From: a virus
Direction: 5' to 3' (one strand)
Virus record (IMG/VR): IMGVR_UViG_3300031539_000159
Length of the DNA: 34,008 bases
The notes under the pieces are model-generated. The model searched no databases, was not told where the DNA came from, and saw only the letters and a list, made by a program, of their open reading frames with translations. Both the position numbers and the translations under genes were made by a program. Below are positions 6,812 to 34,008 of this stretch, one piece after another. Each line of letters opens with the position of its first letter. Position 1 is the first letter of the stretch.

Positions 6812-6831
6812 CCGAAAGGGGGAATTGAAGA

Positions 6832-10135: not shown

Positions 10136-10351
10136 ATGAAACAGGAAGGGAATATCTTCATTGCGGAAAGCAAGGCGGACTTCAGCGGTTGGGAAGTAAT
10201 CAGCATTCAACCGGCGTTCAAGCCTGGCGTGAAGCGGGTCACGGTCCGGCATATCCCGCTGACCGTATCGAAGGAAACGCCCGCGGAATGCCGCTTGGTA
10301 TTCTGTAAGGACGAACACGTTCCGACTGAATTCCGAAAGGTCGCGGTATAA
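10136..10351 (+). CDS. Hypothetical protein (71 aa) starting MKQEG
   Basis: AAGGGGGTTGAATGA precedes the ATG. It shares a 14-nt 5' sequence with the previous gene. Confidence 0.5.
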   Translation: MKQEGNIFIAESKADFSGWEVISIQPAFKPGVKRVTVRHIPLTVSKETPAECRLVFCKDEHVPTEFRKVAV

Positions 10352-10881
10352 TGGCCAACTGTAAGCAATGCGGGGCCCCGCTGACGAAGGGGAATATCAA
10401 GTTCGTTCGGAAGCCTGGGAAGCGGCCGTATCGAGTATGTCGGCGTTGTCGGTATCCCGACGAAGTCGAAGTGACTAGGGTCGGCGACAAGCGTCGGTCC
10501 TTCGTTCGCCCGCCGTCCAGGGAAGACGGCCGACCCGACTTGACGGTCCTGGAAGACTTTGTCCAGGCACCTTCGGAAGCTATTCAAACGGTCAAGCTGG
10601 CCGGTAATATCGAAAGCACAGGGAACGCCCTTCAGCGGCCCCAGGTTAGCACAGGGGACCCGCTAGTGGTCGAAGGGATACTGGAACATCTGGACCCGCC
10701 GAAGTACCGTTATTTCGTAACCAGGGCGACGGCCGAAAAGATTCAACGGGCAATCAAGGGCGGTCAAGTCGGGATAACGGTCGAAGTGATTCCCGTCCCC
10801 GAATACCAGGTCGAAGCGGACCCTGACGCCCTGGGGGATTATGTCGAAATCAACTTCAGTCATTACGCCGTTGACCATTGA
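10351..10881 (+). CDS. Hypothetical protein with an N-terminal zinc ribbon (CKQC...CRRC)
   Basis: 176-aa ORF with TAATG overlap. Confidence 0.55.
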   Translation: MANCKQCGAPLTKGNIKFVRKPGKRPYRVCRRCRYPDEVEVTRVGDKRRSFVRPPSREDGRPDLTVLEDFVQAPSEAIQTVKLAGNIESTGNALQRPQVSTGDPLVVEGILEHLDPPKYRYFVTRATAEKIQRAIKGGQVGITVEVIPVPEYQVEADPDALGDYVEINFSHYAVDH

Positions 10882-10882
10882 A

Positions 10883-11062
10883 TTGACCCTGGACGAATGG
10901 TTCCTGATATGGGCCGCTGATAAGACGGCCCGCGCCCTGGGGCTTTCAATGACCTGGGAAAAGACTGAACACGGGGTTATAATAGGCATGGGGAAAACGA
11001 ATGAAGAAGATATATCAAACGACGTTCGGGGGCGTGAACGCGCCCGACGAAGAAAAGGGTAA
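10883..11062 (+). CDS. Possible small ORF (59 aa, TTG start)
   Basis: It fills the 119-nt gap before 11001 but overlaps the next gene by 62 nt. No clear SD. Confidence 0.2.
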   Translation: MTLDEWFLIWAADKTARALGLSMTWEKTEHGVIIGMGKTNEEDISNDVRGRERARRRKG

Positions 11063-11426
11063 TTGCTGGCAAGCTTGCGTCGCATCACTTCTGGAAATAC
11101 CCCTGGAAGAAGCGTTCGACTGTCGCCCTTATTGGGACCAGGGCGACGGGAAATGGTTCGACGATTTCAACGCCTGGTTGAAGGATTATGGCCTGGCCTG
11201 TATCGCCTTCGACCATACGGAAGAAAAGCCCCTTCCAGCGTCGCCTTTCCTGGGTTATCACCTGGGGGAATTCAAAAGCGCAACCTTGAAGAATGGGGAA
11301 ACCCATATATGCGTAATCCACAACGGGGACGTGGTCCATGACCCGAACCCACGGGCCGAAAGGGTTGGCGACGCATTGGGGTTATATCTATTCGTACCGC
11401 TGGACCCCGTGGAGTGGTCGAAGTGA
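11001..11426 (+). CDS. Papain-like cysteine peptidase (C39-like arrangement)
   Basis: GNCWQACVASLL is a candidate catalytic Cys after Asn/Gln. ETHICVIHNGDVVHDPNP is a candidate His/Asp. Size 141 aa. Confidence 0.45.
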   Translation: MKKIYQTTFGGVNAPDEEKGNCWQACVASLLEIPLEEAFDCRPYWDQGDGKWFDDFNAWLKDYGLACIAFDHTEEKPLPASPFLGYHLGEFKSATLKNGETHICVIHNGDVVHDPNPRAERVGDALGLYLFVPLDPVEWSK

Positions 11427-12328
11427 AAGTATTATTGCTTGACGTTGACGGAAAGCTTCCGAATATTGCCCTTCACAAGTTGGCGATATGGCACGAAGGC
11501 CAGGGCGACGAAGTGACCTGGAATATGCCGCTTTTCCTGAACCAGGCCGACAAGGTTTACATTTCAACAATACTGACGAAGTCGCGCCCGAAGGTTGAAA
11601 ACCTGGTTGGATTACGGCCCGACGCCGTCGTCGGCGGAACGGGTACCTGGGGCTGGTTCATTGACCCGCCGCCAAATTTCCTTCCTTGTCTTCCCGCGGA
11701 AGTTGAACTGGTCAAGGCCCGAATCAATTACGGGTTCACAACGCGGGGTTGTATTCGCCATTGTCCGTTTTGCCTGGTCCCGCTGGTTGAAGGAAATATC
11801 CGCGCGGTCGGGGATATATTCGACGTTTGGGACGGGAAGTCGAAGACCTTGACGTTATTCGATAATAATATCCTGGCCCTTCCGGAACACTTCGAAAGGA
11901 TTGTCACCCAACTGGTCGCTGAAGAACTGGTCGTTGACTTCAACCAGGGCCTTGATATTCGCTTGGTTACTTCTGGAATCGCCCGAATGTTATCAAGATT
12001 GAAAACAAAGGATATTCGATTCGCTTTTGATAGCCTATCGTTGGAAAGCGTTTTCCGTCGTAAAATAGACATATTGAGAAGTAACGGATTCCCGAATAAA
12101 TACTTCTTCGTTTATGTCCTGGTTGGCTTTGATACTACATTCGAAGAAGATATGTACCGCCTGGACGTATTGAAGGAATTAAAATGTCGGCCTTATGTAA
12201 TGCGCCATGAAAGAACGCCGAACGAACGAAGGTATAATGAAATGGCTTCATGGGCGAATCAACTATGGACTTTCGCGGAGTATAACTTTAGTGAGTATTG
12301 GAAATTCAGAACGGGGACAAACTTATGA
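11423..12328 (+). CDS. Radical SAM enzyme with an N-terminal Rossmann-like (B12-binding-like) domain
   Basis: TTRGCIRHCPFC (CX3CX2C) follows a KVLLLDVDG...ALHKLA flavodoxin-like N-terminus. GTG at 11423 has GGAG 8 nt upstream and a GTGA overlap. An alternative GTG is at 11414. Confidence 0.7.
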   Translation: MKVLLLDVDGKLPNIALHKLAIWHEGQGDEVTWNMPLFLNQADKVYISTILTKSRPKVENLVGLRPDAVVGGTGTWGWFIDPPPNFLPCLPAEVELVKARINYGFTTRGCIRHCPFCLVPLVEGNIRAVGDIFDVWDGKSKTLTLFDNNILALPEHFERIVTQLVAEELVVDFNQGLDIRLVTSGIARMLSRLKTKDIRFAFDSLSLESVFRRKIDILRSNGFPNKYFFVYVLVGFDTTFEEDMYRLDVLKELKCRPYVMRHERTPNERRYNEMASWANQLWTFAEYNFSEYWKFRTGTNL

Positions 12329-13806
12329 TAACGAAGACGCCGTACCTTTTCAAAGACGCCGCGACCGCGGTCGAAATCCGGCGGGCCGAAGACGTGGCCG
12401 ACTGGACCAGGACGCCCGCGACCCTGGGGAATCACTTGACGAACGGGTCGTACGAACGGATTCGGCATATTGACTTCCTGGCCGACATAATCGCCCAATG
12501 CGCGGAACGGGCCGTCTTCCTGGTAATCAACGTTCCGCCCCAACACGGCAAGTCCGAACTGGTTTCGCATTATACGCCCGTTTGGTTCCTGAAGAAGTTT
12601 CCCTGGAAGAAGGTCGGGCTGGCGTCGTACGAAATGGGATTCGCTTCAGAATGGGGCGGCAAGGCGAAGGACACGATTACCGAACACACCGACGAACTGA
12701 ATATCCAGCTTCGCCAGGACACGAAGGCGAAGGGCCGCTGGAACCTTCGCGGATACGGCGGCGGAATGACCGTTGCCGGTATCGGCGGCCCCTTCACGGG
12801 TCGGGGCTTCGACTTGATTGTCGTTGACGACCCTATTAAAAACGACGCTGAAGCCCTTTCGGAAGTGTACCGGCGCCGGAACTGGAACTGGTATCGTTCC
12901 GTCGTCCGGCCCAGGCTTCAACCTGGCGGGTCCATTATCGTCATTATGACCCGCTGGCATGAACAAGACCTGGCGGGGGCCTTGTTGGGGAACCCGCCGG
13001 AAGACGAAGAAGAACTGCTTATTGAAGAAGACGTCGAACCGGACCCCTGGGAATGTATCAACCTTCCGGCCCTGGCCGAAGAAAACGACGTCCTGGGGCG
13101 GAAACCAGGGGAAGCCCTTTGGCCCACGCGGTACGACGAAACGGCCCTGAAGAAGCTTCGGGTCGCCGCCGGTCCCTTTTGGTGGACCGCGCAATACCGC
13201 GGGAAGCCGCAACCTGAAGGCGGCGGTATCATCAAAACGGCCTGGTTCAAGTCGTACGAAGACGAAGACCTTCCGCCGACCTTTTCCCGCGTCGTCCAGA
13301 TATGGGATACGGCACACAAGGAAAAGCAACGACATGACCGTTCGGCGTGTCTTACCATTGGCCAGGCGAACAACCCGCGCCGGTATTACCTTCTGGACCT
13401 GTACGTTGCCAGGCTTACCTTTCCGGACCTGAATCGGGCGGCCGAAGCGCAATATGACAAATGGGAACCGGACCGCGTCGTGATTGAAGATAAGTCTTCC
13501 GGAATATCCCTTATCCAGCAACTTCGGCGGGATACGAAGGTCCCGATTCGGGCGGTCAAGGCCATTGACGACAAGGTCACGCGGGCCCATACCGTAACCG
13601 GCGTCATGGAAGCGGGCCAGGTCCTTATCCCGCGTCATGCTTCCTGGTTGGCCGATTTCCTGAAGGAAGTCGGGGACTTCCCGACCGGCGCGCATGACGA
13701 TATTGTTGACGTCCTGGTCCACGGCTTGCGCTTCCTGAAGCCGCGATTGAAGGGGCACCGCCAGGGGGTCGAAGTGGAAGCGAAGAAGTCCCGCTGGCGT
13801 GACTGA
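12325..13806 (+). CDS. terL: Terminase large subunit
   Basis: The ATPase shows PPQHGKSE (Walker A-like), LIVVDDP (Walker B) and MTRWHEQDL. The C-terminal nuclease shows IWDTA, VVIEDKSSG and HDDIVD. ATGA overlap at the start. Confidence 0.9.
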   Translation: MITKTPYLFKDAATAVEIRRAEDVADWTRTPATLGNHLTNGSYERIRHIDFLADIIAQCAERAVFLVINVPPQHGKSELVSHYTPVWFLKKFPWKKVGLASYEMGFASEWGGKAKDTITEHTDELNIQLRQDTKAKGRWNLRGYGGGMTVAGIGGPFTGRGFDLIVVDDPIKNDAEALSEVYRRRNWNWYRSVVRPRLQPGGSIIVIMTRWHEQDLAGALLGNPPEDEEELLIEEDVEPDPWECINLPALAEENDVLGRKPGEALWPTRYDETALKKLRVAAGPFWWTAQYRGKPQPEGGGIIKTAWFKSYEDEDLPPTFSRVVQIWDTAHKEKQRHDRSACLTIGQANNPRRYYLLDLYVARLTFPDLNRAAEAQYDKWEPDRVVIEDKSSGISLIQQLRRDTKVPIRAVKAIDDKVTRAHTVTGVMEAGQVLIPRHASWLADFLKEVGDFPTGAHDDIVDVLVHGLRFLKPRLKGHRQGVEVEAKKSRWRD

Positions 13807-13807
13807 A

Positions 13808-14029
13808 ATGGTTACATCATATCAACGGGGACACCTTATCGAGTACGTCGGCGGTCAATGGATTTATGCCGACGATAAAACGCCGATAACGAATGAACGT
13901 CCGTGTATTCGTTGCGGAAGATTACCGACACCGGAAGGATACGACGCTTGCCTGGGATATTTGCCAGGCGTTGAATCGGCTTGTTGTGGACACGGCCGCG
14001 CGACTAGCTTCCCGATTGTATCAACTTGA
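13808..14029 (+). CDS. Small Cys-rich protein (CIRCG...C...ACCGHG)
   Basis: 73 aa, immediately after terL. Confidence 0.5.
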   Translation: MVTSYQRGHLIEYVGGQWIYADDKTPITNERPCIRCGRLPTPEGYDACLGYLPGVESACCGHGRATSFPIVST

Positions 14030-20425: not shown

Positions 20426-21382
20426 ATGAAATCACAACCGACGACCCGTTTTCCTGGAAGAAGTATATTCGAAACAATCCAGGCGGACAATTACGAAGGG
20501 TTAGGCGGGATAATTCAGGCCCCAGGCCAGGACTTCTTCGTATCGTCCAATCGGGGCCACAACAACAAGTCGGGCTTGTCCTGGGCGCAACCGAAGGCCG
20601 AAATTCAGGCGGCAATGGAACTGGCCGCAATCGCCCGTTACAAAGGCCGCGGGCTATGCCGTGTCTTCGTCGAAAGCGGCGGATATACCGGCCCAATCCT
20701 TACCCCGACGAATGCCGATTGTCCGTTCGGCGCGTTGATAGGCGTCAACAACAACGGGGAAGGAAACGGGCCCTGGTTACAGGCGTTGACGGCGGGGGGG
20801 ACTATCCTGACCGTTCGGGCGCGGGGCTGGATTGTATCCGGCTTCGAATTCGACCTTCCGACCACGGGCAAGGGAATTGACCTGGACGGTAAGACGGCCG
20901 CCATGAGTGCCCAATATACCAAAATACGGAAGTGCCTTTTCAACGGCGCGAAGAATGCGACTTACGGGATAGACTTCCGCGGGGGTTCGACCTTCGTCGT
21001 CATTGAAGATAATATCTTCTATGACATATACAACGCGGGCGGGCTGGCCCAGGCAATCGCCTGTACCGATAGTTCAACCGACGTCCCGCAATGGGTGAAG
21101 GTCCTGGGAAATTGGTTCGCCAATAACGACAAGCATTTGTCGTTGAATGGACTTCGCGGGTTCAAGAATGGCCAAATCAAGGAAAATACCTTCGTCAAGA
21201 CGGGCAATATAAAGACCGCGACGGTCCTGGTTGACCTGACGGGGGGTTCGAACAACGTCGTCGCCGAGAATTTCAGCGACCATGATTGGTCTATAAATAC
21301 TACGGAAATGAAGGCGGGTACGAACGACATGTGGGGACCGAACCATTGTCCCGCTGGCGTCAAGTACGGCAATCCGGCCTAA
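20426..21382 (+). CDS. Right-handed parallel beta-helix (pectate-lyase-like) structural protein
   Basis: Rung-like repeats occur: GIDLDG..., YGIDFRGGSTFVVIEDNIFYD, VKVLGNWFANN, GQIKENTFVKTG, NNVVAENFS. Confidence 0.5.
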   Translation: MKSQPTTRFPGRSIFETIQADNYEGLGGIIQAPGQDFFVSSNRGHNNKSGLSWAQPKAEIQAAMELAAIARYKGRGLCRVFVESGGYTGPILTPTNADCPFGALIGVNNNGEGNGPWLQALTAGGTILTVRARGWIVSGFEFDLPTTGKGIDLDGKTAAMSAQYTKIRKCLFNGAKNATYGIDFRGGSTFVVIEDNIFYDIYNAGGLAQAIACTDSSTDVPQWVKVLGNWFANNDKHLSLNGLRGFKNGQIKENTFVKTGNIKTATVLVDLTGGSNNVVAENFSDHDWSINTTEMKAGTNDMWGPNHCPAGVKYGNPA

Positions 21383-21393
21383 ACATGGCACCT

Positions 21394-21421
21394 GGGGGCC
21401 CCTGGTCAACCTGGGGGCCCC
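21394..21421 (+). terminator. GC hairpin formed by two GGGGGCCCC units (terminator-like)
   Basis: GGGGGCCCC-TGGTCAACCT-GGGGGCCCC pairs at 8 of 9 positions. The units are part of a 14-bp direct repeat ACCTGGGGGCCCCT at 21390 and 21409. Confidence 0.4.
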
Positions 21422-21496
21422 TTACTCGACAACTGAATAACGGGTTACTGGCCCTTCGGGGGCCGTCCTGAATAAGAATGTAGGGGGTAACGTCAA

Positions 21497-21874
21497 ATGG
21501 TAACACCTTCACGGGACAACCGTTCCGCAAAGCAAATGACCCGAAAAGCCCTTCCGCTTGAAAAGGCGAACGTCCACAATGGCAATAAGAACGCCAATAC
21601 CGACTTCCTGACAACCGCCTTGACCCCTTCCGATTATCCGGTCCTTTTCCGCGTTCAAGTCATGCTTCCGGCCGCGGGAAAGTTCACGGCGAAGATTACC
21701 AAAGCGACCGCGACGTTGACTGGCCATTTCAACGGCGGGGCGAACCTGGCCGCAAGTTGCTTGTATATCTTCGACTTGCTGGTCCATTCGGGGGATTCGG
21801 TCAACTTCCAGTCCGACCAAAACCAGGACGGACACCTTCTTCGGGTCCAGGAAATCACCTGGGGGGTTCAATGA
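21497..21874 (+). CDS. Hypothetical structural protein (125 aa, beta-rich)
   Basis: TAGGGGGTAA SD. Lies in the structural region. Confidence 0.55.
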   Translation: MVTPSRDNRSAKQMTRKALPLEKANVHNGNKNANTDFLTTALTPSDYPVLFRVQVMLPAAGKFTAKITKATATLTGHFNGGANLAASCLYIFDLLVHSGDSVNFQSDQNQDGHLLRVQEITWGVQ

Positions 21875-21875
21875 T

Positions 21876-22439
21876 ATGTCGTACCCGCCCCAGGGACTAG
21901 ACAAGGCCGACGTACTGACGAACCTGGCCGTCGTGGACGCGAACGTTGACGATAGCCTAGCCAATGTCGCGGCCCTTCAACATCATATTCATTCCCGCTT
22001 CCGCGTTTATCCCCAGGACGTCGGGGCGACGATAAGCCTGGCGGCGGCGGAAGCGGCAAACACTTTCGGGGATTGGACACAAATTGTTCCAATAAATACG
22101 ATTGATTTTGTGTATATGGTCATTGGCCTTTTGATTGAAGCCGTGGACGCCCCGACGACTTACTTCGTCCAGTTGGGTTATAGTATCGTTGACGGGACCG
22201 AACCGACAACGGCGCAAATAATAGGGGAAAGGCGTATTCGGCTTGTTACCGTCCCGATAGCAAGGGCGACGGAAATTCTCGGAATACATGCGTCCCATTG
22301 TCCAGCGAATGCGAAGTTGTGGGGCAGATTGAAGACAGCTTCCATTGCCGCCGACGAAGTGGAAGTAAGCATTGCCGTAATACGCCATATAGACATAACA
22401 AATCCGATAGCCAAATTAGCGACGTGGCCGTGGTCATAA
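21876..22439 (+). CDS. Hypothetical structural protein starting MSYPPQG
   Basis: 187 aa, starting 1 nt after the previous stop. Its N-terminus resembles the next gene. Confidence 0.55.
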   Translation: MSYPPQGLDKADVLTNLAVVDANVDDSLANVAALQHHIHSRFRVYPQDVGATISLAAAEAANTFGDWTQIVPINTIDFVYMVIGLLIEAVDAPTTYFVQLGYSIVDGTEPTTAQIIGERRIRLVTVPIARATEILGIHASHCPANAKLWGRLKTASIAADEVEVSIAVIRHIDITNPIAKLATWPWS

Positions 22440-22463
22440 TCCGAATTAAGGGGGTATAGTAAA

Positions 22464-23066
22464 ATGAGTTTTCCGCCACAAGGAACGCAAACTGATATAT
22501 CAAGCCTGGGAACGCTGTCGAATCAGTCAACGTTATTGACCAGGTTATCGGCGGCCCGCGCGGGATACATGGACGCCCTGAACCGCGACCGGCCTTCAAT
22601 GCTTTTCCCGTCGGCCTTGCCGAAGGCGATTATCGCCGTTCCCGCGGTTGGGAACGTCGCCGACCTGGACTTCCCCGACATAATCGTTGCTGGTCTTCCT
22701 TCGGGAATTACGATTGCGCGGGCGGACCTGGTCCTGATAATCGGGGCCCTTCTGGATACTTCGGCGGCTGAAAATCAGGTTGCCGCCGCCAATAAGAAGC
22801 TACGAATCAAGATTTCGACGGGGGCCTGGGCGACCAACGATATTCCCGCATTGACCTTCGTCCTGAATTCGCTTCAATGTGACGCCAGCGCATACCGCGG
22901 CGGGACCGTCCTATTCGGCGCGACCGATATTAAGGCGGTCGTAACCGCTGACGGGACATATAACCTTCGGTCCGTACAAACGACCCGTGAAGACGCCGTC
23001 ATTGCGACAGGGGATACCCTGGAACTTCTGGACGTAAGCGCGGTCATTCGCGTATGGTTCAATTAA
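22464..23066 (+). CDS. Hypothetical structural protein starting MSFPPQG
   Basis: 200 aa with TTAAGGGGGTATAG SD. Carries an N-terminal helix LLTRLSAARAGYMDALN. Confidence 0.55.
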   Translation: MSFPPQGTQTDISSLGTLSNQSTLLTRLSAARAGYMDALNRDRPSMLFPSALPKAIIAVPAVGNVADLDFPDIIVAGLPSGITIARADLVLIIGALLDTSAAENQVAAANKKLRIKISTGAWATNDIPALTFVLNSLQCDASAYRGGTVLFGATDIKAVVTADGTYNLRSVQTTREDAVIATGDTLELLDVSAVIRVWFN

Positions 23067-23078
23067 CGGGGGGAAGAC

Positions 23079-23582
23079 ATGGCAGTTGAAGAACAACTGG
23101 CAGATAACACGGCGCAAAGTTTGAGTGTATCGAACTTCCAGCGGGCGGGCCAAAGGCTTACTATCTCGAATCGGATTGTCTCAAAATTGGCCTTCAATCT
23201 GAAGAAGTCTTTGTCGCCGTCGGGCAATGTGACCTTCACCATTCGAAAGGTAAGCAACGATTCTGTAATTGCTTCGAAGGTATGGGGGGACGCTTCTTCG
23301 TTGCCGACCACTACCGATTGGCAAGAAGTAACATTCGACAGTCCAGTCCTGGTCAATGAAGAAGTAAGAATAAGTTGTGAATACGAGGGGGCGACCCTGG
23401 TTAGTATCAGAATTCAGGGTTCGGACGTCAAGTCGAATGAAGTTGAAACTTATCATAATGAGGGGTCGTGGGTGGACGACGCGAACAAAGACATGGCGTA
23501 CAAATACACTTATGAAGTATATGCGCCGCCTGTCGCTTCGGGGGGCGGACCCGCGGGCCTTGTCGCGGCGGGCATAATATAA
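23079..23582 (+). CDS. Hypothetical structural protein, paralogous to the N-terminal domain of the 1264-aa tail protein
   Basis: Residues 3-105 align at roughly half identity with residues 48-150 of gene 26790 (EEQ..NTA.SL...F.R.GQRLTI..R.VS.LAF....P.GN..F.I.KVS.DSVI..KV.GDAS.L.....W.EV.FD.P...N.EVR). Confidence 0.6.
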   Translation: MAVEEQLADNTAQSLSVSNFQRAGQRLTISNRIVSKLAFNLKKSLSPSGNVTFTIRKVSNDSVIASKVWGDASSLPTTTDWQEVTFDSPVLVNEEVRISCEYEGATLVSIRIQGSDVKSNEVETYHNEGSWVDDANKDMAYKYTYEVYAPPVASGGGPAGLVAAGII

Positions 23583-23595
23583 AGGGGGCTTAGAC

Positions 23596-24108
23596 ATGAC
23601 AGTTGAAGCTAATACTTACGCCGAACATGAAGACGTCGAACGGTTGATTGGCGACATTGTCGAAGACCGGACCTTCACGGAAACCACGGCCCCTTCCCTG
23701 GCCCAGGTCGAAGAAGAACTGGACAACGCCGCCCTGGACTTGAATCGGGAACTGGACCAGGTCGGTTATACCGTCCCCGTGTCCGAAACCGATTACCCGA
23801 CGGCGTACGGATACCTGAAGGCGGCCAATGCTTACGGCGCGGCCGCGGTCCTATTGTCCACAATACCCGCGGACGTTTACGACCCGACGGAAGAAGTCGA
23901 ACAACCAGGGACGACCAGGGCCCAGGTATATTCGAACAAGTTCAAGTCGGCATTGAAGGCAATCAAGGAAAACCGCCTTCGCGCCGGTCGGCGGGTCGGC
24001 CGCCTGGCGAACCTGGCCGCTGGTTCCGCGGTTGACGACGAAGGGAATACGAAGGAACCGATATTTACCAGGCGCGAAGATTCGTACCCAGGGATTGACG
24101 TCTATTGA
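23596..24108 (+). CDS. Putative head-tail adaptor/connector
   Basis: 170 aa and the first gene of the connector block. It has an acidic helical N-terminus. The call is by position. Confidence 0.4.
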   Translation: MTVEANTYAEHEDVERLIGDIVEDRTFTETTAPSLAQVEEELDNAALDLNRELDQVGYTVPVSETDYPTAYGYLKAANAYGAAAVLLSTIPADVYDPTEEVEQPGTTRAQVYSNKFKSALKAIKENRLRAGRRVGRLANLAAGSAVDDEGNTKEPIFTRREDSYPGIDVY

Positions 24109-24193
24109 CCGAAATAATGACAGCGACGAGCTGGCAGCCGGCTGAATTTTTGAAGCTAAACGAAGATACAAACGGCGAAAGGAAGGGTATAAA

Positions 24194-24634
24194 ATGGGCC
24201 AGGCGACAATCGAAGCGGGAATTATAGCGACCATTATCAAACACGCTGACTTCGACGCTGATAATACGAAGCTATACGACCGGCGGCCAATGGGAAAGGG
24301 GAAGGCCCGCGTCGTCGTCGTTTCTTATAATTCACACCGCAAAGAACAAATCACCTTGAAAATGGAAAGGCGTATCTGGACCTATAACGTGGACGTCATG
24401 GTCCCCTGGCGGGGCGACTTGACCGAATTGGATACCAGGGTCGGGACCGAAACGCAAAAGGTCATTGATACCCTGGCCGCATACCCGAAGCTGAACGGGG
24501 TCGCGGGGGTCCAGCGGACCGACGTCACAATGGCGAATACGCCTGACCTTATCCAGGAAAAGAAGGGCGGGTATCGGGGTCGAAGACACTTCCTTGAAGT
24601 TCGGGAAATCGTTGACCCAGGAAGGGTTGAATAA
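24194..24634 (+). CDS. Putative head-closure/head-tail joining protein
   Basis: 146 aa. The call is by position only. Confidence 0.35.
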   Translation: MGQATIEAGIIATIIKHADFDADNTKLYDRRPMGKGKARVVVVSYNSHRKEQITLKMERRIWTYNVDVMVPWRGDLTELDTRVGTETQKVIDTLAAYPKLNGVAGVQRTDVTMANTPDLIQEKKGGYRGRRHFLEVREIVDPGRVE

Positions 24635-25137: not shown

Positions 25138-25174
25138 GCCTTCCGCCCAGGTTATAAAAAGGGGGTAATTGGAA

Positions 25175-25615
25175 ATGACAGAAGTATTCGTTGATTCCCA
25201 GGAAAGCGCATTCCTTATTGACAATGTGGGGGCCGTATCAAGTGACTTGTCGCCGTACATTGTGTCGGTTGACGGGCTTCCTGGGCCCAGGGAATTGTCG
25301 GACGCGACCGCGCTTGGCGCGGGCGGCCGGAACTGGCACCCGTCCCTTGAAAACGTGATAATCAACCTTGAACTCATGTGGTCGGACGACGTTGACGTCG
25401 GACCCGATACGGTCCTGGGGCCGCTTCGGACCCACACGGCCGCGGTTGACTTCAATTATGGTCCGGAAGGTCAAACGGCTGGCGATATTAAGTATTACGG
25501 CAAATGTTGGGTCCGGAACTATAAGATAACGTCCAGGGTCGGGAACCTGGTCATGGCGTCCGCTGAACTTCAGGTCAATGGAACGGTATCCAGGGGCACC
25601 TTTCCCGTAACGTAA
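25175..25615 (+). CDS. Major tail (tube) protein
   Basis: 146 aa, directly before the chaperone/TMP genes. Beta-rich C-terminus YYGKCWVRNYKITSRVGNLVMASAELQVNG. AAAAAGGGGGTAA SD precedes the ATG at 25175. Confidence 0.55.
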   Translation: MTEVFVDSQESAFLIDNVGAVSSDLSPYIVSVDGLPGPRELSDATALGAGGRNWHPSLENVIINLELMWSDDVDVGPDTVLGPLRTHTAAVDFNYGPEGQTAGDIKYYGKCWVRNYKITSRVGNLVMASAELQVNGTVSRGTFPVT

Positions 25616-25639: not shown

Positions 25640-26098
25640 ATGAAGACAGTCAAAATTGACTTGCCCGACGGGAACACGGCCGAACTGTACGCTGAAATGA
25701 AGCATAAGACACAGGTGGCCGTCGAAGGAATAACCCGCCAATACCTGACATATCCCGAAGGCGTCGGGAAGCTGAAGGTTTCCCAGGGGGAAGACGGCGG
25801 ACCCATTCGAACGAAGGCCGTCGAAGAAGTGGAAGTTACCGTTGACCTTGAACGAATAGATTGGACCGCGGTCAACGAAATAATCATCTTGAACCAGGTC
25901 GTTTCCTGGTCCTTCGGCGAAGTGACGGCCGAAGTCCTGGGCGAACAATCCGAAGCCGTGTTCGAAGCTTTGAAACGGAAGGTCAACGAACTTTTCAGGG
26001 ATAACTTCCCTTTACAAAAAAGCGGCGCCGTGAACTCGGCGAAGGGCTGGCCCTTGCTTTCAAAGTTCCGACACGTTTTCGCGTTCCGCCGCAATTAA
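25640..26098 (+). CDS. Tail assembly chaperone (gpG analogue)
   Basis: 152 aa between the tube and the TMP. The MKTVKIDLPDGNTAELYAEM opening is typical of this family. A slippery run lies near the 3' end. Confidence 0.6.
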   Translation: MKTVKIDLPDGNTAELYAEMKHKTQVAVEGITRQYLTYPEGVGKLKVSQGEDGGPIRTKAVEEVEVTVDLERIDWTAVNEIIILNQVVSWSFGEVTAEVLGEQSEAVFEALKRKVNELFRDNFPLQKSGAVNSAKGWPLLSKFRHVFAFRRN

Positions 26099-26235
26099 GG
26101 GAAGCAATGCTGGTTACGGAAACGGGCTTCCCGCCGGACGTCCTGGGGGAAATGCCCGAACGGTTACTGGACGAAATTGTAATATATCGGGGCGTCAAAA
26201 ACGTCGTCCAATTCGGCGGCGATTGGCAACCATAA
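25640..26235 (+). CDS. Predicted -1 frameshift fusion product (gpGT analogue)
   Basis: The -1 frame continues ...KKRRRELGEGLALAFKVPTRFRVPPQLREAMLVTETGFPPDVLGEMPERLLDEIVIYRGVKNVVQFGGDWQP and stops 10 nt before the TMP start. Confidence 0.45.
26015..26022 (+). promoter_or_regulatory. Candidate -1 programmed frameshift site CAAAAAAG
   Basis: A six-A run plus G lies 75 nt before the gpG-like stop. The -1 frame is open from 26005 to 26235. Confidence 0.5.
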
Positions 26236-26244
26236 GGGGGAATT

Positions 26245-26790
26245 ATGGCCGACGAAGTTTCAACTGTAATGGTCCTTCGAATGAGGGACGAAGCTTCAGC
26301 GCAAATGAAGAACTTCGCGGGGACGACTGAACAAGCGACCCTGGCGTCGCTGGATTTCAAAATGACGCTGACGGCGGTCGGGGGCGCATTGACCGCGGTC
26401 GGGGCCCTGGTCAATCAGATTGACAACCCGACGGCGAAGCTGGCCGCGACCTTCCTTATGACCGGCGGGGCAATGATGACAACCGTGTCGGCGATTATTT
26501 CAATGATACCTTATATTCGGACCCTTATTACTTCCCTTCGCGCCCTGGCCATTACCCAGGCCATTGTCAAGGCCCTTTCGGGGCCCGTCGGTTGGGCCCA
26601 ACTAGGAATCGGCCTGGCAATCGCGGGGGCGGCAACCGCCGGTATCGTGGCAATGACCGGCGGCTTCGGCGGGGCGAAAACGGTCGAAATCAAGGGCGGC
26701 CCGCTTATCATGGAAAACGACGCGCAAATGCGCCGGTTCGCCAGCGCAATCACCGAAGCGCAACGCCGTGAAGGAAAGGTTGGTCGGTAA
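26245..26790 (+). CDS. Tape measure protein, unusually short (181 aa)
   Basis: It lies immediately after the chaperone pair. It has a helical N-terminus and a Gly/Ala-rich hydrophobic core (TAVGGALTAVGALV...LGIGLAIAGAATAGIVAMTGGFGG), as in TMPs. Confidence 0.5.
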   Translation: MADEVSTVMVLRMRDEASAQMKNFAGTTEQATLASLDFKMTLTAVGGALTAVGALVNQIDNPTAKLAATFLMTGGAMMTTVSAIISMIPYIRTLITSLRALAITQAIVKALSGPVGWAQLGIGLAIAGAATAGIVAMTGGFGGAKTVEIKGGPLIMENDAQMRRFASAITEAQRREGKVGR

Positions 26791-29700
26791 TGGTTGATTT
26801 AATTTCCGTTCGTTTCAATAGTGGTAATGTAAAAGACAATGAACTTCGGACTTACCGAATAAGGGCGACTGGAGTTTGGACTGATAATGAAACCTACGAT
26901 ATGTGTTACAAATATCGCTATGGTGTTAGCTCGGAAGAACAGATTATTGAAAATACTGCGAATTCTTTGTTTCCTACTTCAACATTTGATAGAGAAGGGC
27001 AGAGGCTTACCATACCTGGTCGAACTGTATCAAGACTAGCTTTCTACATTTTAAAAGTTGGTAATCCCACAGGTAATATCCTTTTTGGTATTAACAAGGT
27101 TTCCGACGATAGCGTCATTATGCGCAAGGTCCTGGGCGACGCCAGCACTTTACAAACGGTTAAAACTTGGGAGGAAGTAATCTTTGATACTCCTACATTT
27201 ATCAATGACGAAGTTAGACTGTATATTGAGTTTCCTTATATTCATCTCGCTACTGTAATAACGCAATTATGTACCGCCATTGACCATGATTCGGGGATTG
27301 GTCATGGTAACGTAACCGACCTGGGGGATTCGGCGGTTACGCAACACGGCCATTGTTGGAGTGAAGCCCACGGCCCGACCACGGCTGACGATAAGACCGA
27401 AAACGGGGCGAAGGTGGCAACGGGGCCCTTCACTTCAGCGATAACGGCCCTTGACCCTAGTACCACTTATTACGTCCGCGCTTACGCAACGAATACTGAA
27501 GGGACCGCGTACGGCGCGGAAGTCGAATTGACTACATTCGCGGCGGGGGCCCCGACGGTCCTGACGCTGGAATGTACCGACATTCAATCCACAACGGCGA
27601 CGGGTAACGGGAATCTGACCGACATTGGCGATTCCGCCGTTACCGAACACGGGCACGTTTGGGCGACCGACCCGAACCCGACGACCGCTGACTTCAAAAC
27701 GACCCTGGGGGCTAGGGGCGTCGGCGTCTTCGAATCCGACCTGGTTGGCCTTACCCCTGGCGAAACGTATTACGTCCGCGCGTATGCGACCAATACCCAG
27801 GGGACCGCGTACGGCGACAACGTCGTCCTGGAAACGCCGACAGCCAATCCCCCGACCGTTACGACCCAGGCTTGTTCGGCGATAAGTCCGGAATCGGCAA
27901 CCGGCCACGGGAACATTACCAGCTTCGGCGACGCTTACGTTTCCGTATATGGCCATTGTTGGTCAACCAGTCAATACCCGACGACGGCCGACGATAAGGC
28001 AGAACAAGTCTTACCGTTCGCGCCAGGGGCCTTCACGTCGGCGATTACTGGACTTCTTCCCGATACCAGGTATTACATTCGGGCATACGCGACGAATGAA
28101 TATGGGACCGCGTACGGGAACCAGGTTTCAATTTACACTTACCCAGGCGGGGCCGTTATCAATCCCGAAAACCCCGTCGGCGTTGATTGGGCCGACGACG
28201 GCGTCTTCGTTGACATAGCCGCGGACATAATGGAAGCTTATATCGAATGGGGGAAGGACCGCGAACTGAACGAAGCGACCCCTTCTTTGATAGCTTTGAC
28301 AATGGACAATTTCGACCACAAATACAGTCCGCCGAATGCGGCAAGCCCCTATAACACGGGCGGGAATACGGTTCGGGCTGGCCACAGAATCCGATTGTCG
28401 TTCGGGTACCCGTTCGACAACTTCAATGACGTTGACGGCGTCGCCATTGAAAACCACGCCGTCCCGAAGGATAGTCAATTCACCTGGTCGGAAAAGTCGG
28501 GGACCTTCTCGATATACGATAACAAGCTTCGGGAAACCGGCGGAAGCGGCGGTATCGCCGTAATTGACTTCGGGGAACCGGACGCGCATATCGAAGTCAA
28601 ATTCACCAAAGGCGCGAACAACGATTGTATTATTGTCTTCAGGTATTTGAACGCGACCAATTACCTTTACATTCGGACTGACGGAACCAACCTGGAAGTC
28701 CGAAAGGTTGACGGCGGGGCCGATTCCCTGGTTGACGAAGAAGCCCTGGCCTGGGCCAACGATACCACGAAGACAATCAAGGTTATACTTCACGGCGCCT
28801 ATATTTACGTCGTCGCTGATAATACGCTGGTCGTTAAAACCAGTTCAACCCATAACCAAACGGAAACGAAGCATGGGGTCGGCGGACCGACTATTGATAC
28901 CGACGCCAGGTACGAAGACTTCGGCGGAATCTATTCCCTGTTTTACGGGACCATTGACCGAATCATTCCGTACCCGAACAAGGTACGTCAAACGGCCCTG
29001 ATTGAAGCCAGCGACGACTTGAAGATTCTGGAACGTCATACCCTTTACAGAAGGGCATACTCATATACCGGATACCCTGGCGGAATGCGGGCGTTTATCC
29101 AGGAAGTCTATAAAAACACGGCCAACGTGTCACAGTTGGGCGAAATCATGGACATTGGCGAATCAATCAGCACGTCGCCTTATAAGTCATGGTGGGGGAT
29201 TTCGGGCTTGCGGGTATGCCGGAATGTCGAACGGGAAGAAAACGGCTTCTTCTATCAGGACCAGATTTCCTTTTGGCGGTTCGAAGCGAAGGGCCACAGG
29301 GCCGCCGCGCCCCATAACGCGTCGCGTTGTACGTTTTATCAGGATTACGAAACGAACAACCTGGCGTTTACCGGCCTGAAATGGGAAAGCGGGGAAGAAG
29401 ACGTTTTCAATATGGTTTCGGTCCATGTCGAAAAGTCCCAGGCCGACCCGTTGAACCTGGCGACCGGCGGTCAAGAGGTATGGCGTTGCGCTGAAGCGGA
29501 CGTACTGGACGCTGGCGTGACAAGCCAACTGGTAATTCCGGCCACTTCAAGCGTCGTAATCTACTTCGAATCGAAGGACTTCGATTGCCTGGAAGACTTG
29601 ATTACGCCAGCAATCGCTTCGAACGTTTACAAAATTGAAGGGAAGGTAACGGGCGGCCCCTTCCTGGAAGGCGAAACCGTGACGGGGTCCGTTTCGGGTC

Positions 29701-30584
29701 ATACGGGAAAGGTCCTGGAACAAGGCGGCGGTTACATAATCCTGGGCGATTCTTCAGGGGCTTACGACGCGGCCGATATATGGGTCGGGGCGACTTCAGG
29801 GGCGACGATTGCCATTGGTTTCAAAATCAAAGGCACGATTACCAATGGCCCGTTCCTTTTCGGCGAAGGTATTACGACCAACATTTCAACCGACACGGGT
29901 ATTGTTCGAGAGGTCGGCCAGGACTTCGTCTTATTGGAAAGTTGTTCAGGGGTCTTCAATGCTGGCGATACGGTAACGGGGACGAAGTCGGCGGCGACAT
30001 TGAACGGGACCGTGACGATAACGGTCGTCGGTTCAAAGGCGCTGATTTCCGATTACCAGGCCAACGCCGCGGCCGACGGGTCCGGCGCGGATAAGACCGC
30101 CAACCTGACCGTCGCGTTGTCTTATCCGGTTTATAATTCGTATGGCAAGGGCGGGAAGCTGACCCTGACCAATGACGACGCTTCCCCAATTTACGTCACG
30201 CGATTGCTGGTCCGCGGCGACGGGTACAATATTCAGGACCGCGGTTCCGTGTACGTTGAAGACGCCGCTTCAAAGGTGGCTTACGGCGAACATTCGTACG
30301 ACGTCAAGGCGGAAATCCTGACAAGCCTGGCCGAAGCGAAGACCCTGGCCGACGACGTGGAATCGAAGGAAGACACGCCGCGGGCGAAGGTTGAAATTAC
30401 CCTGGTCAATGCCAATAAGGAAATGCTGACGAAGATTCTATCCCTGAAGGTATCGGACCGGATTACAGTCAATTATTCCGACATGGGGATTGACGAAGAC
30501 TTTTTTATCAACAAAGTCGGTTATAACATTGGCGAAGGCGGCTTACTTGTCGAATCCGTCCTGAAGCTGGAAGAAGTATCTTGA
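26790..30584 (+). CDS. Giant multidomain distal tail protein (evolved-Dit-like) with receptor-binding-type modules
   Basis: 1264 aa with TAATG overlap with the TMP. It comprises an N-terminal domain paralogous to gene 23079, three Fn3-like repeats, a Dit-like core (N-terminal part about aa 455-545, C-terminal ...ITVNYSDMGIDEDFFINKVGYNIGEGGLLVESVLKLEE), a LamG/ConA-like insertion (about aa 560-700) and twin 62-aa repeats. Confidence 0.65.
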   Translation: MVDLISVRFNSGNVKDNELRTYRIRATGVWTDNETYDMCYKYRYGVSSEEQIIENTANSLFPTSTFDREGQRLTIPGRTVSRLAFYILKVGNPTGNILFGINKVSDDSVIMRKVLGDASTLQTVKTWEEVIFDTPTFINDEVRLYIEFPYIHLATVITQLCTAIDHDSGIGHGNVTDLGDSAVTQHGHCWSEAHGPTTADDKTENGAKVATGPFTSAITALDPSTTYYVRAYATNTEGTAYGAEVELTTFAAGAPTVLTLECTDIQSTTATGNGNLTDIGDSAVTEHGHVWATDPNPTTADFKTTLGARGVGVFESDLVGLTPGETYYVRAYATNTQGTAYGDNVVLETPTANPPTVTTQACSAISPESATGHGNITSFGDAYVSVYGHCWSTSQYPTTADDKAEQVLPFAPGAFTSAITGLLPDTRYYIRAYATNEYGTAYGNQVSIYTYPGGAVINPENPVGVDWADDGVFVDIAADIMEAYIEWGKDRELNEATPSLIALTMDNFDHKYSPPNAASPYNTGGNTVRAGHRIRLSFGYPFDNFNDVDGVAIENHAVPKDSQFTWSEKSGTFSIYDNKLRETGGSGGIAVIDFGEPDAHIEVKFTKGANNDCIIVFRYLNATNYLYIRTDGTNLEVRKVDGGADSLVDEEALAWANDTTKTIKVILHGAYIYVVADNTLVVKTSSTHNQTETKHGVGGPTIDTDARYEDFGGIYSLFYGTIDRIIPYPNKVRQTALIEASDDLKILERHTLYRRAYSYTGYPGGMRAFIQEVYKNTANVSQLGEIMDIGESISTSPYKSWWGISGLRVCRNVEREENGFFYQDQISFWRFEAKGHRAAAPHNASRCTFYQDYETNNLAFTGLKWESGEEDVFNMVSVHVEKSQADPLNLATGGQEVWRCAEADVLDAGVTSQLVIPATSSVVIYFESKDFDCLEDLITPAIASNVYKIEGKVTGGPFLEGETVTGSVSGHTGKVLEQGGGYIILGDSSGAYDAADIWVGATSGATIAIGFKIKGTITNGPFLFGEGITTNISTDTGIVREVGQDFVLLESCSGVFNAGDTVTGTKSAATLNGTVTITVVGSKALISDYQANAAADGSGADKTANLTVALSYPVYNSYGKGGKLTLTNDDASPIYVTRLLVRGDGYNIQDRGSVYVEDAASKVAYGEHSYDVKAEILTSLAEAKTLADDVESKEDTPRAKVEITLVNANKEMLTKILSLKVSDRITVNYSDMGIDEDFFINKVGYNIGEGGLLVESVLKLEEVS
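27270..28142 (+). repeat. Three tandem ~100-aa Fn3-like repeats within the giant tail gene
   Basis: The units start at aa 161, 262 and 362. Each contains GxGNxT..GD..V..(H/Y)GH(C/V)W...PTTAD...G.F.S...L.P.T.YY(V/I)RAYATN..GTAYG. DNA-level similarity is also visible (TATTACGTCCGCGC at 27469 and 27769). Confidence 0.85.
29628..30008 (+). repeat. Two tandem ~62-aa repeats (YKIEGKVTGGPFLEGETVTG... / FKIKGTITNGPFLFGEGITT...)
   Basis: Read from the translation, aa 947-1009 and 1011-1073. Confidence 0.7.
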
Positions 30585-30597
30585 AGGGGGAATGAGC

Positions 30598-30888
30598 ATG
30601 GCCGTTGAAATCATAATTGCTGGTTCAAGCCTGGTTGTCGCCGTGGTCGCCGCGGGCGGGGTCGTTATGACCTGGCGGCGAAATGGGAAGGACCAGGCCG
30701 CGCGGGACCAGGAAATCAAGGACAATCAAAGCGAAATAATCAAACGCCTGGACGACAAGGAAACGGGCTTGTCCGGCCTGAATGAAAAGATTCACGGCTT
30801 CGAAGTGAATTGCGCTAGGACGTCTTCAGGATTCGACCAGCGTATCCTTGCCGCCGAACGCGACGTCAAGGACCTGAAGCATAAGTAA
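30598..30888 (+). CDS. N-terminal transmembrane + coiled-coil protein (holin/lysis-associated candidate)
   Basis: AVEIIIAGSSLVVAVVAAGGVVMTW transmembrane helix, then a charged coiled coil. The ATG at 30598 lies 7 nt from AAGGGGG, while the ATG at 30592 is too close to it. Confidence 0.4.
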   Translation: MAVEIIIAGSSLVVAVVAAGGVVMTWRRNGKDQAARDQEIKDNQSEIIKRLDDKETGLSGLNEKIHGFEVNCARTSSGFDQRILAAERDVKDLKHK

Positions 30889-30921
30889 GCCCCTTTATGG
30901 GGGACCTGGCATTTTGCCAGG
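30889..30921 (+). terminator. Two adjacent short hairpins after the last late gene (weak terminator candidates)
   Basis: GCCCC-TTTAT-GGGGG and CCTGGC-ATTTT-GCCAGG. No clear U tract. Confidence 0.35.
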
Positions 30922-30937
30922 CGTCTTCCTTTCGGAC

Positions 30938-30974
30938 GGACCCTGGGGATTCAATCGGGCAATTCCCAGGGTCC
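30938..30974. promoter_or_regulatory. Long inverted repeat GGACCCTGGG...CCCAGGGTCC
   Basis: 10-bp perfect arms at 30938-30947 and 30965-30974, extendable to 14 bp with one G-T pair. Confidence 0.6.
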
Positions 30975-31033
30975 TATTATTTGCCCTTACCAGCGGCCCC
31001 AGGGCGGCCAACACGGGGCCCCAGGACCTTCGC

Positions 31034-31042
31034 TGGTATAAT
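31034..31042 (+). promoter_or_regulatory. Extended -10 element TGGTATAAT (candidate promoter without a -35)
   Basis: A perfect TGnTATAAT at 31034-31042 inside the non-coding hub. Confidence 0.35.
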
Positions 31043-31104
31043 CCCTTCCAGGTCCCGACAATTTCAATCCTGACGCGACGTCACCTTCGTTTACAAAAGT
31101 CACC

Positions 31105-31127
31105 TTTGTCAACCACACGTTGACAAA
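31105..31127. promoter_or_regulatory. Palindromic operator-like site TTTGTCAAC-N5-GTTGACAAA
   Basis: Perfect 9-bp arms at 31105-31113 and 31119-31127, flanked by GTCACCTT(C/T)GT direct repeats at 31080 and 31099. Confidence 0.55.
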
Positions 31128-31210
31128 AAATCACCCAAAAGAATGACCCGAATCGCCCGAAAGTATGACCCTTTCGGATAACCAATTCAGCTTCAATTCG
31201 ATATAGGGGC

Positions 31211-31240
31211 TTGACAAGGGCAATACATATCCTTTATACT
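31211..31240 (+). promoter_or_regulatory. Sigma70-type promoter P2 (TTGACA-18 nt-TATACT)
   Basis: TTGACA at 31211-31216 and TATACT at 31235-31240. The 19-mer CTTGACAAGGGCAATACA is identical to P3. Confidence 0.65.
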
Positions 31241-31281
31241 GATAATGGTCGGGTTGACTAGCCCGCCGGAAGGAAGACAAA

Positions 31282-31512
31282 ATGAACATACCGTTGGTTG
31301 AAATACTGAAGTTGGAAACCAGGCTTCCGTTGCGCCTGGTCGAAATCAACGCCGCCCTTCTGGAAGACATTCAGAAGAACGGTATCCTGGAACCCGTCGA
31401 AATCAGGATTCGGGAAGACGGGTCGCGGATACTTTGGGACGGTCTTCACAGGGTCAAGATTGCCGCCGCCCTGGGCCTGGGATTCGTACCCGTATTCTTC
31501 AGGGAAATGTAA
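31282..31512 (+). CDS. Stand-alone ParB/Srx-like N-terminal (nuclease) domain protein
   Basis: 76 aa. LEDIQKNGILEPVEIRIREDGSRILWDGLHRVKIAAALG matches the ParB N-terminal domain pattern (G.l.Pi.v...y.li.G.HR..Aa..lG). No HTH or dimerisation domains. Confidence 0.6.
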   Translation: MNIPLVEILKLETRLPLRLVEINAALLEDIQKNGILEPVEIRIREDGSRILWDGLHRVKIAAALGLGFVPVFFREM

Positions 31513-33881: not shown

Positions 33882-34008
33882 GGGGGTTCAAAATGACAAT
33901 GGGACATTGTAAGCATGGGGAATTCGAACTGACGAAAGGTTGTCCGCAATGTATCGCGGAACGCCAGGCGGCCCAGGAACGGGAAGACGCCGAAGTCAAT
34001 TCGCCCGA
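33882..34008. repeat. Second copy of the 127-nt terminal overlap
   Basis: Identical to 1-127. Confidence 0.9.
33893..34008 (+). CDS. Duplicate 5' fragment of gene 12..1331 (assembly overlap, not a separate gene)
   Basis: Same sequence as 12-127. Confidence 0.85.
   Translation, partial: MTMGHCKHGEFELTKGCPQCIAERQAAQEREDAEVNSP

Follow-up and report, generated by a model that had tools for sequence, protein, structure and literature searches.

Which component of a phage tail tip is encoded by a very large, lectin-bearing gene located directly behind the tape measure gene? The question is raised by the viral sequence IMGVR_UViG_3300031539_000159 (34,008 nucleotides, hereafter the window), in which an open reading frame (ORF) with an ATG start on the + strand (26790..30584) encodes a protein of 1264 amino acids (aa). 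A first-pass annotation delimited this ORF correctly and read its product as a distal tail protein (Dit) with stacked binding modules. We found it highly likely that the product is instead the tail-tip hub (tail-associated lysin (Tal)/baseplate hub, gp27/gpJ class) of a small phage of siphovirus type, the tube of which is non-contractile. It is a member of the hub/Tal class, though a divergent and heavily decorated one. This reading draws directly on the fold and the domain boundaries of the protein, on the order of the genes, and on where homologues occur. It inverts the puzzle posed by the annotation: the Tal/hub is present as the 26790-30584 gene, and what was not found is a recognisable Dit. 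The earlier observation that no separate Tal/hub gene exists, and that no lysin or fibre gene follows, was accurate; on our reading, a separate hub gene is missing because the 26790-30584 gene is itself the hub.

Predicted fold of the conserved scaffold

A word-indexed search with aa 455-1264 returned 26 homologues, all of them metagenomic; the only one with a source name is designated 'Tail protein'. Alignments delineated a conserved scaffold of ~500 aa in three segments. The first of these (aa ~455-541; 28152..28412, +) is kept in all homologues, carries the motif 'VDWxDDG...N.DHKYSPPN', and corresponds to phrog_5313. The second (aa ~712-940; 28923..29609, +) aligns with all family members and has a mixed alpha/beta structure according to the DSSP assignment of the model described below. 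The C-terminal segment (aa ~1084-1264; 30039..30584, +) is the most conserved block. Two clean insertions separate the segments. The one at aa ~542-711 is gone in many family members of ~490 aa, and the one at aa ~941-1083 is gone in all minimal members. The three segments together are predicted to adopt a gp27/VgrG-like hub fold.

AlphaFold2 (AF2) was run on aa 455-1264 using the 26-sequence alignment, and yielded a model with a mean pLDDT of 90 and a pTM of 0.81. When this model was searched against the PDB with Foldseek, hubs or spikes accounted for 16 of the top 50 matches, and no Dit chain occurred among these 50. The Dit-like core that the first-pass annotation had proposed, and had staked on structure prediction, was not borne out. 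The tail chain 9h4p_BD of the virus HFTV1 was matched with a probability of 1.0 (E = 1.7e-6) over ~690 aligned columns; we take this chain of 953 residues to be gp44. Compact hubs were also matched with a probability of 1.0, namely those of MuSo2 (gp44-like 3cdd, target-normalised TM-score (TMt) 0.54), a Neisseria prophage (3d37, TMt 0.61), and phage 7-7-1 (9rku_Af, TMt 0.57). The same probability was obtained for hubs or spikes of contractile injection systems (CIS) and type VI secretion systems (T6SS): AlgoCIS 7aef_q, Streptomyces CIS 9gtr_q, VgrG1 7q5p/4mtk, PVC 9qgm, and Anabaena CIS 7b5h. The lambda gpJ chains 8iyk_F, 8k35_A, and 9e7m were weak matches (probability 0.2-0.54, TM ~0.1). In BFVD, Foldseek found a viral protein of 716 aa (E = 6e-62, query-normalised TM-score 0.68), and also returned 'minor tail/structural' proteins of Bacillus, Rhodococcus, Gordonia, and Arthrobacter phages.

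The sequence hints stayed below threshold. PF06605 (Prophage_tail) was seen at aa 1146-1247 with E values of 0.014-0.1 and 12.7-15.6 bits, compared with a cutoff of 31.3, and PF22255 (Gp44-like_2nd) appeared in one relative (E = 0.05). A profile built from the basal family had only two matches among PDB sequences, a VgrG and a phage 'hub protein', both marginal (E = 0.2), and the matched region falls within the second scaffold segment. The motif 'SDRITVNYSDMGIDEDFFI' of the C-terminal segment aligned to residues 270-335 of HFTV1 gp44, without significance. At the level of sequence, these sub-threshold hints all point to hubs and agree with the hub assignment.

Several observations weigh against it. 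No significant sequence match to any hub family was obtained in Pfam, NCBIfam, PDB sequences, or the hhalign comparison with HFTV1 gp44. Profile searches of PDB sequences with the family alignments A2 and A5 yielded nothing significant, and the family profile showed no significant similarity to HFTV1 gp44 (probability 1%) or gp41 in hhalign. The Foldseek TM-scores normalised to the 810-residue query were low (0.24-0.29) and the rmsd values were high, because the inserted modules and the domain orientations differ. The case made by the model is thus carried by the target-normalised scores of the compact hubs and by the consistency of the hit list. The related PHROGs are labelled 'tail fiber' or 'tail protein', not hub. 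Finally, a homologue from the basal family in the Microcystis phage Mae-JY09 is the fifth gene after the tape measure protein (TMP) gene, so family members are not always the sole tail-tip protein.

Modules carried by the scaffold

The decorating modules listed by the first-pass annotation proved to be real, including its N-terminal domain, the three Fn3-like repeats, the LamG/ConA-like insertion, and the twin repeats. The N-terminal module of ~155 aa (26790..27251, +) is a paralogue of a stand-alone gene of the window (23079..23582, +) that encodes a 167-aa protein. The two are 51% identical over 111 aa (BLASTP, E = 3e-36), and the order of their segments is circularly permuted, with the strands at the C-terminus of the 167-aa protein matched to the front of the hub (aa 4-46). 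An AF2 model of aa 1-460 gave low confidence for this module (pLDDT 26-75). A search of PDB sequences with the 167-aa paralogue returned only noise, including a match to a CBM70 hyaluronate lyase at E = 0.39.

Three tandem Fn3 domains follow (aa ~155-251, 255-351, and 356-452; 27252..28145, +). At the DNA level they form the repeat family D1 with a spacing of 300/303 nt, and at the protein level they have 45-53 identical residues per ~95. Pfam fn3 was matched with 26 bits. The array was modelled with pLDDT values above 90 in the same aa 1-460 model, and Foldseek matched it to tandem FnIII arrays (E = 2e-12).

The first insertion (aa ~542-711; 28413..28922, +) is a LamG/ConA-like, CBM66-like lectin module. 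Its block at aa ~567-705 matched the CBM66 structure 4b1m in the PDB (Foldseek, E = 1.3e-8, TMt 0.72), and the module also gave galectin-type matches such as 1oq1 and 2d6n. It is present in 26 of the 26 close homologues, and the ~490-aa family members lack it with a clean gap. The models and alignments indicate that the module is a true insertion in the hub scaffold, and sugar binding is predicted for it.

The second insertion (aa ~941-1083; 29610..30038, +) holds two all-beta repeats of ~60 aa with the pattern 'GPFLxGExVTG...SGxFxAGDT', in which self-alignment identified 23 identical residues out of 54. Close homologues have zero, one, or two copies of this repeat, and the homologue P0018 has one at its N-terminus. 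The repeats matched weakly to the Ig-like RII extender repeats of MpAFP (4p99, E = 5e-6). Neither Pfam nor PHROGs revealed a peptidase, lysozyme, or glycosidase domain in the hub, and no lysin-type catalytic fold occurred among the listed Foldseek matches of the hub model. The protein ends in the conserved scaffold and has no distal fibre shaft.

Tape measure gene and the place of the Dit

The gene upstream of the hub (26245..26790, +) encodes 181 aa with hydrophobic Gly/Ala-rich segments, and its stop codon overlaps the start codon of the hub gene. Both ends of this protein align to a 279-aa protein of the related contig L003, which matches nine tape-measure PHROGs; this identifies the 181-aa ORF as encoding a very short TMP. 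It is 75% identical to a 183-aa gene product at the same position in the contig L046. The window and L003 proteins share a conserved C-terminal stretch of ~40 aa, which is consistent with docking in the hub, but is not proof of it.

Upstream of the TMP gene lies a 152-aa ORF (25640-26098) with the features of a tail assembly chaperone gene (25640..26235 including the -1 frame, +). The -1 frame is open at 26005-26235, and the slippery heptamer C CCT TTA lies in phase at 26008-26014. L003, L044, and L046 have homologues in the corresponding location. Judged from the sequence, this region has the classic G/GT arrangement upstream of the TMP, and a -1 frameshift is plausible. In L003, a DUF1353/phrog_1158 'tail assembly chaperone' gene follows the hub.

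The TMP–Dit–Tal triad has been described as conserved in all siphophages, with dit located between tmp and tal (PMC7291167). The hub is encoded downstream of the TMP in the window and in L002, L003, L044, L045, and L046, where PHROGs confirmed the TMPs of L002 and L003. No gene separates the two in the window, and nothing lies between them in L046 (TMP of 183 aa), L044 (195 aa), or L002 (395 aa). L045 (TMP of 389 aa) has a 77-aa ORF and L003 (TMP of 279 aa) a 140-aa ORF at this place. A Dit-sized gene between TMP and hub was thus found neither in the window nor in the five related contigs. The 140-aa ORF of L003 (9567-9989) matches positions 169-217 of phrog_5313, that is, the N-terminal scaffold segment of the hub. 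By this sequence match it is not a Dit; it represents part of a split hub, the rest of which is the 1269-aa protein encoded at 10001-13810. No match to PF05709 or another Dit family was obtained in Pfam, PHROGs, or NCBIfam for the full protein, its segments, the 26 homologues, or the basal relatives. PHROG and Pfam scans of the complete genome likewise gave no other ORF that matched a Dit, another Tal, a lysin, or a fibre family. A truly Dit-less tip is possible, and a divergent adaptor could hide in the small ORFs at 21497, 21876, and 22464.

The length of the tail was scaled from HFTV1, which has a TMP of 341 aa, 11 tube rings, and a 56-nm tail (PMC12494034). By this analogy, the short TMP would imply a stubby tail of roughly 20-27 nm.

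Comparison with known tail tips

A close likeness was found with HFTV1 gp44 (9H4P/9H7V), a trimeric hub with a carbohydrate-binding domain, in which the termini of the TMP dock (PMC12494034). Both proteins are large (954 vs 1264 aa), lack a lysin domain, have a domain of carbohydrate-binding type, and belong to short-tailed, siphovirus-type virions with a short TMP (341 vs 181 aa). In HFTV1, fibres attach at the N-terminus of the hub, and a trimeric two-domain baseplate-tail connector (BTC), gp41, takes the place of the Dit (PMC12494034). The window protein has a built-in N-terminal arm instead, and neither the separate connector gp41 nor the fibre gp42 has a detectable counterpart in the window. 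The carbohydrate-binding module (CBM) of HFTV1 is C-terminal, whereas the modules of the window protein are internal insertions and N-terminal additions. The host of HFTV1 is archaeal, while that of the window phage is probably a member of the Chloroflexota.

Siphophages of Gram-positive hosts have Tal trimers that act much like the HFTV1 hub, among which 'evolved Tals' carry CBMs inserted in the gp27-like domain (PMC7291167). Those of Streptococcus thermophilus pac-type and related siphophages resemble the window hub in this insertion of a CBM into a gp27-like scaffold (PMC7533335, PMC7291167). They follow a Dit, usually have a C-terminal extension, and match PF06605, whereas the window hub has no Dit gene, is extended at the N-terminus, ends with the scaffold, and scores far below the PF06605 cutoff. 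The best target-normalised structural matches were the hubs of Mu gp44/P2 gpD type (3CDD, 3D37, 9RKU) and the VgrG proteins of T6SS and CIS. The gp44-type proteins are bare hubs of ~330 aa (or hub plus spike) of contractile systems, and have no lectin, Fn3, or repeat modules. Unlike the VgrG spikes, the window hub has no spike or needle domain. The evolved Dits with CBMs of lactococcal and streptococcal phages (PMC6669499, PMC7291167) share the position directly after the TMP and the CBM decoration. Their scaffold fold differs, and the window hub has no structural or sequence match to a Dit.

The arrangement of the Fn3 domains is reversed with respect to two classic systems, and the window has no counterparts of their partner genes. 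Lambda gpJ and T5 pb3 combine hub domains with FnIII domains. Both are large tail-tip proteins of siphophages in which the FnIII domains come after the hub and extend to a receptor-binding tip at the far end, with the genes for the partners gpM/L/K/I and pb9 placed between those for the TMP and the hub. The window protein has its FnIII domains ahead of the hub. Since FnIII domains are familiar from gpJ and pb3, and since hubs with inserted CBMs are documented (PMC7291167), the accretion of modules that the first-pass annotation called unusual is only moderately surprising, real as it is on a single tail-tip protein.

Alternative assignments

With these comparisons in hand, we weighed three other assignments for the 26790-30584 product. 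A heavily decorated evolved Dit, forming a hexameric ring with a galectin-like domain in a phage without any Tal/hub, would fit the location directly after the TMP, which is the usual place of dit (PMC7291167), but position alone is not diagnostic. The galectin-type matches could be mistaken for the C-terminal domain of a Dit, a fold in which a tube-like beta-sandwich 'belt' at the N-terminus is joined to a galectin-like or OB domain, but they map to the optional insertion that the ~490-aa relatives lack. The residual sequence hints point to Tal and hub families, no Dit family is matched, and the top 50 structural matches held 16 hubs or spikes against zero Dits. The evolved-Dit view is therefore largely refuted, and we consider it hardly credible. 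We regard as very unlikely that the protein is a central or side tail fibre, that is, a receptor-binding protein with a hub-like attachment domain of gpJ type that works alongside separate M/L/K/I-like partners, and that another, unrecognised protein closes the tube. The 'tail fiber protein' and 'tail protein' labels of the related PHROGs, the presence of gpJ among the Foldseek matches, and the lambda-like gene order around the Mae-JY09 homologue would agree with a fibre. The gpJ matches, however, reached probabilities of only 0.2-0.54 and TM ~0.1, compared with 1.0 for the gp44/VgrG-type hubs, and the conserved scaffold ends the protein, which leaves no distal fibre shaft. In addition, the genome is complete, with no gene between the TMP and the hub and only the 98-aa membrane protein behind it.

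The remaining alternative is a fusion or merger of Dit and Tal, in which the segment at aa ~455-541 supplies the tube-adaptor function of a Dit or of the HFTV1 BTC. The ~500-aa scaffold exceeds a minimal Tal of ~380-400 aa by ~100 aa, and in L003 this very segment is a separate 140-aa ORF exactly at the position of dit. The missing Dit-sized gene between TMP and hub in the window and the five related contigs, and the lack of any ORF matching a Dit family in a complete genome, would also be explained. On the other hand, alignments with compact gp44-type hubs extend across ~640-690 columns of the 810-residue model, which suggests that the N-terminal segment lies within the hub fold instead of forming an additional domain. 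Moreover, VgrG in T6SS is widely regarded as capping the Hcp tube with no Dit involved, so that a hub may be enough by itself, and the small ORFs at 21497, 21876, and 22464 could encode a divergent adaptor. On balance, we find such a fusion unlikely.

Proposed arrangement of the tail tip

For the tail-tip hub that we favour, we infer the oligomeric state, the docking of the TMP, and the binding of glycans mainly by analogy with solved tail tips. Three copies of the hub would assemble into a pseudo-hexameric plug and so close the tube at its distal end. The C-terminus of the 181-aa TMP would dock in this plug, and the tail initiator complex would comprise the chaperone together with the hub and the TMP. 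The lectin module and the pair of small beta domains are inserted in surface loops of the scaffold, and the N-terminal arm consists of one module and three Fn3 domains. A trimer could thus display three lectin modules, six small beta domains, nine Fn3 domains, and three N-terminal modules around the tip. These modules may serve as built-in adhesins for cell-surface glycans, probably those of a Chloroflexota host. Glycan binding would trigger the opening or loss of the hub, and the TMP and the DNA would then be released.

Genome context

The ends of the window are a 127-nt direct repeat, with positions 1-127 and 33882-34008 being 100% identical. This repeat shows that the window covers an entire genome of ~33,881 bp (~33.9 kb), which is either circular or terminally redundant, so that all of its genes are open to inspection. 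All genes lie on the + strand. INPHARED, with 50,697 deposited phage records, was searched with DNA and protein and contained nothing closely related to this genome; only the Fn3 region gave matches.

The gene order was read from PHROG and Pfam scans of the ORFs of the window. It runs from the large terminase (12298, +) through the portal (14094, +), protease (17095, +), scaffold (18949, +), and major capsid (19388, +) genes to a gene directly after the last of these for a 318-aa beta-helix protein (20426..21382, +), for which the Pfam Beta_helix match was just under the cutoff (E = 1.6e-5). Six small ORFs occupy 21497-24634 (+), and a weak match to tail completion/Neck1 begins at 24634 (+). 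The major tail (tube) protein (MTP) of 148 aa (25169..25615, +) matches phrog_10528 'major tail protein' (E = 1e-22), and the chaperone, TMP, and hub genes described above follow.

The next gene after the hub (30592..30888, +) was described by the first-pass annotation as encoding a 96-aa membrane protein. We found an N-terminal transmembrane helix, as this implies, and a charged, probably helical tail; the length is 98 aa. Small genes follow the hub at the same position in the relatives too, and no sequence similarity was detected between their products and the 98-aa protein. The ~0.5 kb 3' of the 98-aa gene (30889-31433) holds no convincing ORF. No tRNA or Rfam element was matched anywhere in the window. 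The early/auxiliary region (4000-12328) encodes a protein with a DnaA N-terminal domain (4000-4725), a RuvC-like resolvase (4822-5394), two radical SAM proteins (5896-6705 and 11414-12328), and a DUF1643 protein (7070-7669).

Variable cassettes upstream of the tail genes

A comparison with the relative L046, the hub of which (P0003) is 83% identical to that of the window, placed window positions 20426-23582 opposite L046 482-3774. Most structural genes are 68-96% identical between the two, and four pieces are swapped or diverged. In the 318-aa beta-helix protein, the ~100 N-terminal residues are 30% identical, and the C-terminal two-thirds have diverged. The 187-aa protein encoded at 21876 is conserved over its 47 N-terminal residues only. 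The 167-aa gene at 23079 is replaced in L046 by an unrelated 212-aa ORF, and the N-terminal module of the hub (aa 1-154) is replaced in P0003 by unrelated sequence. The products of 21876 and 22464 have the N-terminal heptapeptide MS(Y/F)PPQG in common. A co-variation of the swapped P0003 N-terminal module with the replacement cassette of that phage was considered and ruled out, as the two are not paralogous.

Receptor-binding or surface proteins typically combine an anchor that is constant at the N-terminus with a distal part that varies. Candidate genes for fibres, spikes, or decoration proteins would accordingly be located upstream, at 20426-23582, and not after the hub. The 318-aa beta-helix protein, the place of which had been left unclear by the first-pass annotation, is a candidate variable surface, spike, or decoration protein.

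Homologue family and host

A full HMMER scan with the family profile returned 13,068 clusters at 50% identity with E <= 1e-3, of which 634 had E <= 1e-30. Not one of the family members scanned scored above a Pfam or NCBIfam threshold. Ahead of aa 455 the homologues freely exchange sequence, with varied N-terminal domains, up to three Fn3 domains or none, or kelch/beta-propeller-like repeats. A tblastn search with one basal member, P0092, matched a single deposited phage, Mae-JY09 (L043, PP395641; 8803-10101). Its homologue stands fifth after a TMP gene of 1554 aa, in the lambda-like order H-M-L-K-I-J.

Genomes were scanned with one genome per GTDB species. All 37 of the 37 genomic loci with homologues belong to metagenome-assembled genomes of Dehalococcoidia/Chloroflexota. 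The hubs at these loci are minimal (~650 aa, ~657 aa), and have the LamG module while lacking both twin repeats and Fn3 domains. An MTP homologue 48-59% identical to that of the window is located 0.8-1.4 kb upstream of the hub in at least 26 loci. The widely common unit consists of the MTP, a ~169-aa ORF, in some cases a ~100-aa ORF, and the hub, with unrelated flanks; as a stand-alone unit it sits around 8600-12200 of each of the loci L005-L037, and it recurs in dozens of species-level genomes. In L015-type loci, the MTP directly abuts the hub. The loci L001, L015, and L028 add an S78 protease, capsid, connector, and tail terminator, and neither portal nor terminase was detected at the loci with these extra capsid and protease genes. 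The Dehalococcoidia modules could be decayed prophages, or domesticated tail devices resembling tailocins or gene transfer agents (GTAs).

Since the homologue loci are all in Dehalococcoidia/Chloroflexota, we infer that the host of the window phage is probably a Dehalococcoidia-like member of the Chloroflexota. An archaeal host, suggested by the PaREP1 neighbours in L001, was rejected in view of the uniform assignment of the loci and the DnaA_N-domain protein of the window. A preprint on a Dehalococcoides virus, dealing with IME1, was set aside, as it concerns an unrelated element. Dehalococcoides itself is not known to have peptidoglycan. Some Chloroflexi genomes lack the pathway for peptidoglycan synthesis, and one encodes S-layer glycoprotein genes (PMC3971608). 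Speculatively, a lysin-free, lectin-rich hub would suit a host that has an S-layer and scant peptidoglycan or none at all.

Significance for tail-tip biology

The results correct an annotation trap, in that a large lectin-bearing gene right after the TMP need not be an evolved Dit. They also define how a very large family of tail hubs, one that lacks Pfam and NCBIfam coverage, is built from modules, and link it to phages and prophage-like modules of Dehalococcoidia/Chloroflexota, the viruses of which are barely characterised. The very short TMP, the size of the uncurated family, and the stand-alone MTP–hub modules are all noteworthy, and the apparent lack of a Dit or connector is the most interesting feature. 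We advance as a doubtful but suggestive proposal that this clade of phages builds a non-contractile tip from the TMP and the hub only, without a Dit/connector ring, which would depart from the TMP–Dit–Tal triad described for all phages, and that the MTP–hub pair, with no capsid, portal, or terminase genes close by, has spread through many Dehalococcoidia chromosomes as a stand-alone mini-tail module, possibly tailocin-like or GTA-like.

As a lysin-free hub with many modules of glycan-binding type, the protein resembles that of the archaeal virus HFTV1. If the absence of a Dit is real, it would show that a hub of gp27-like fold can close off a siphovirus-type tube without an intermediary, in the manner presumed for VgrG on Hcp, and the window phage would offer a minimal model of tail initiation.

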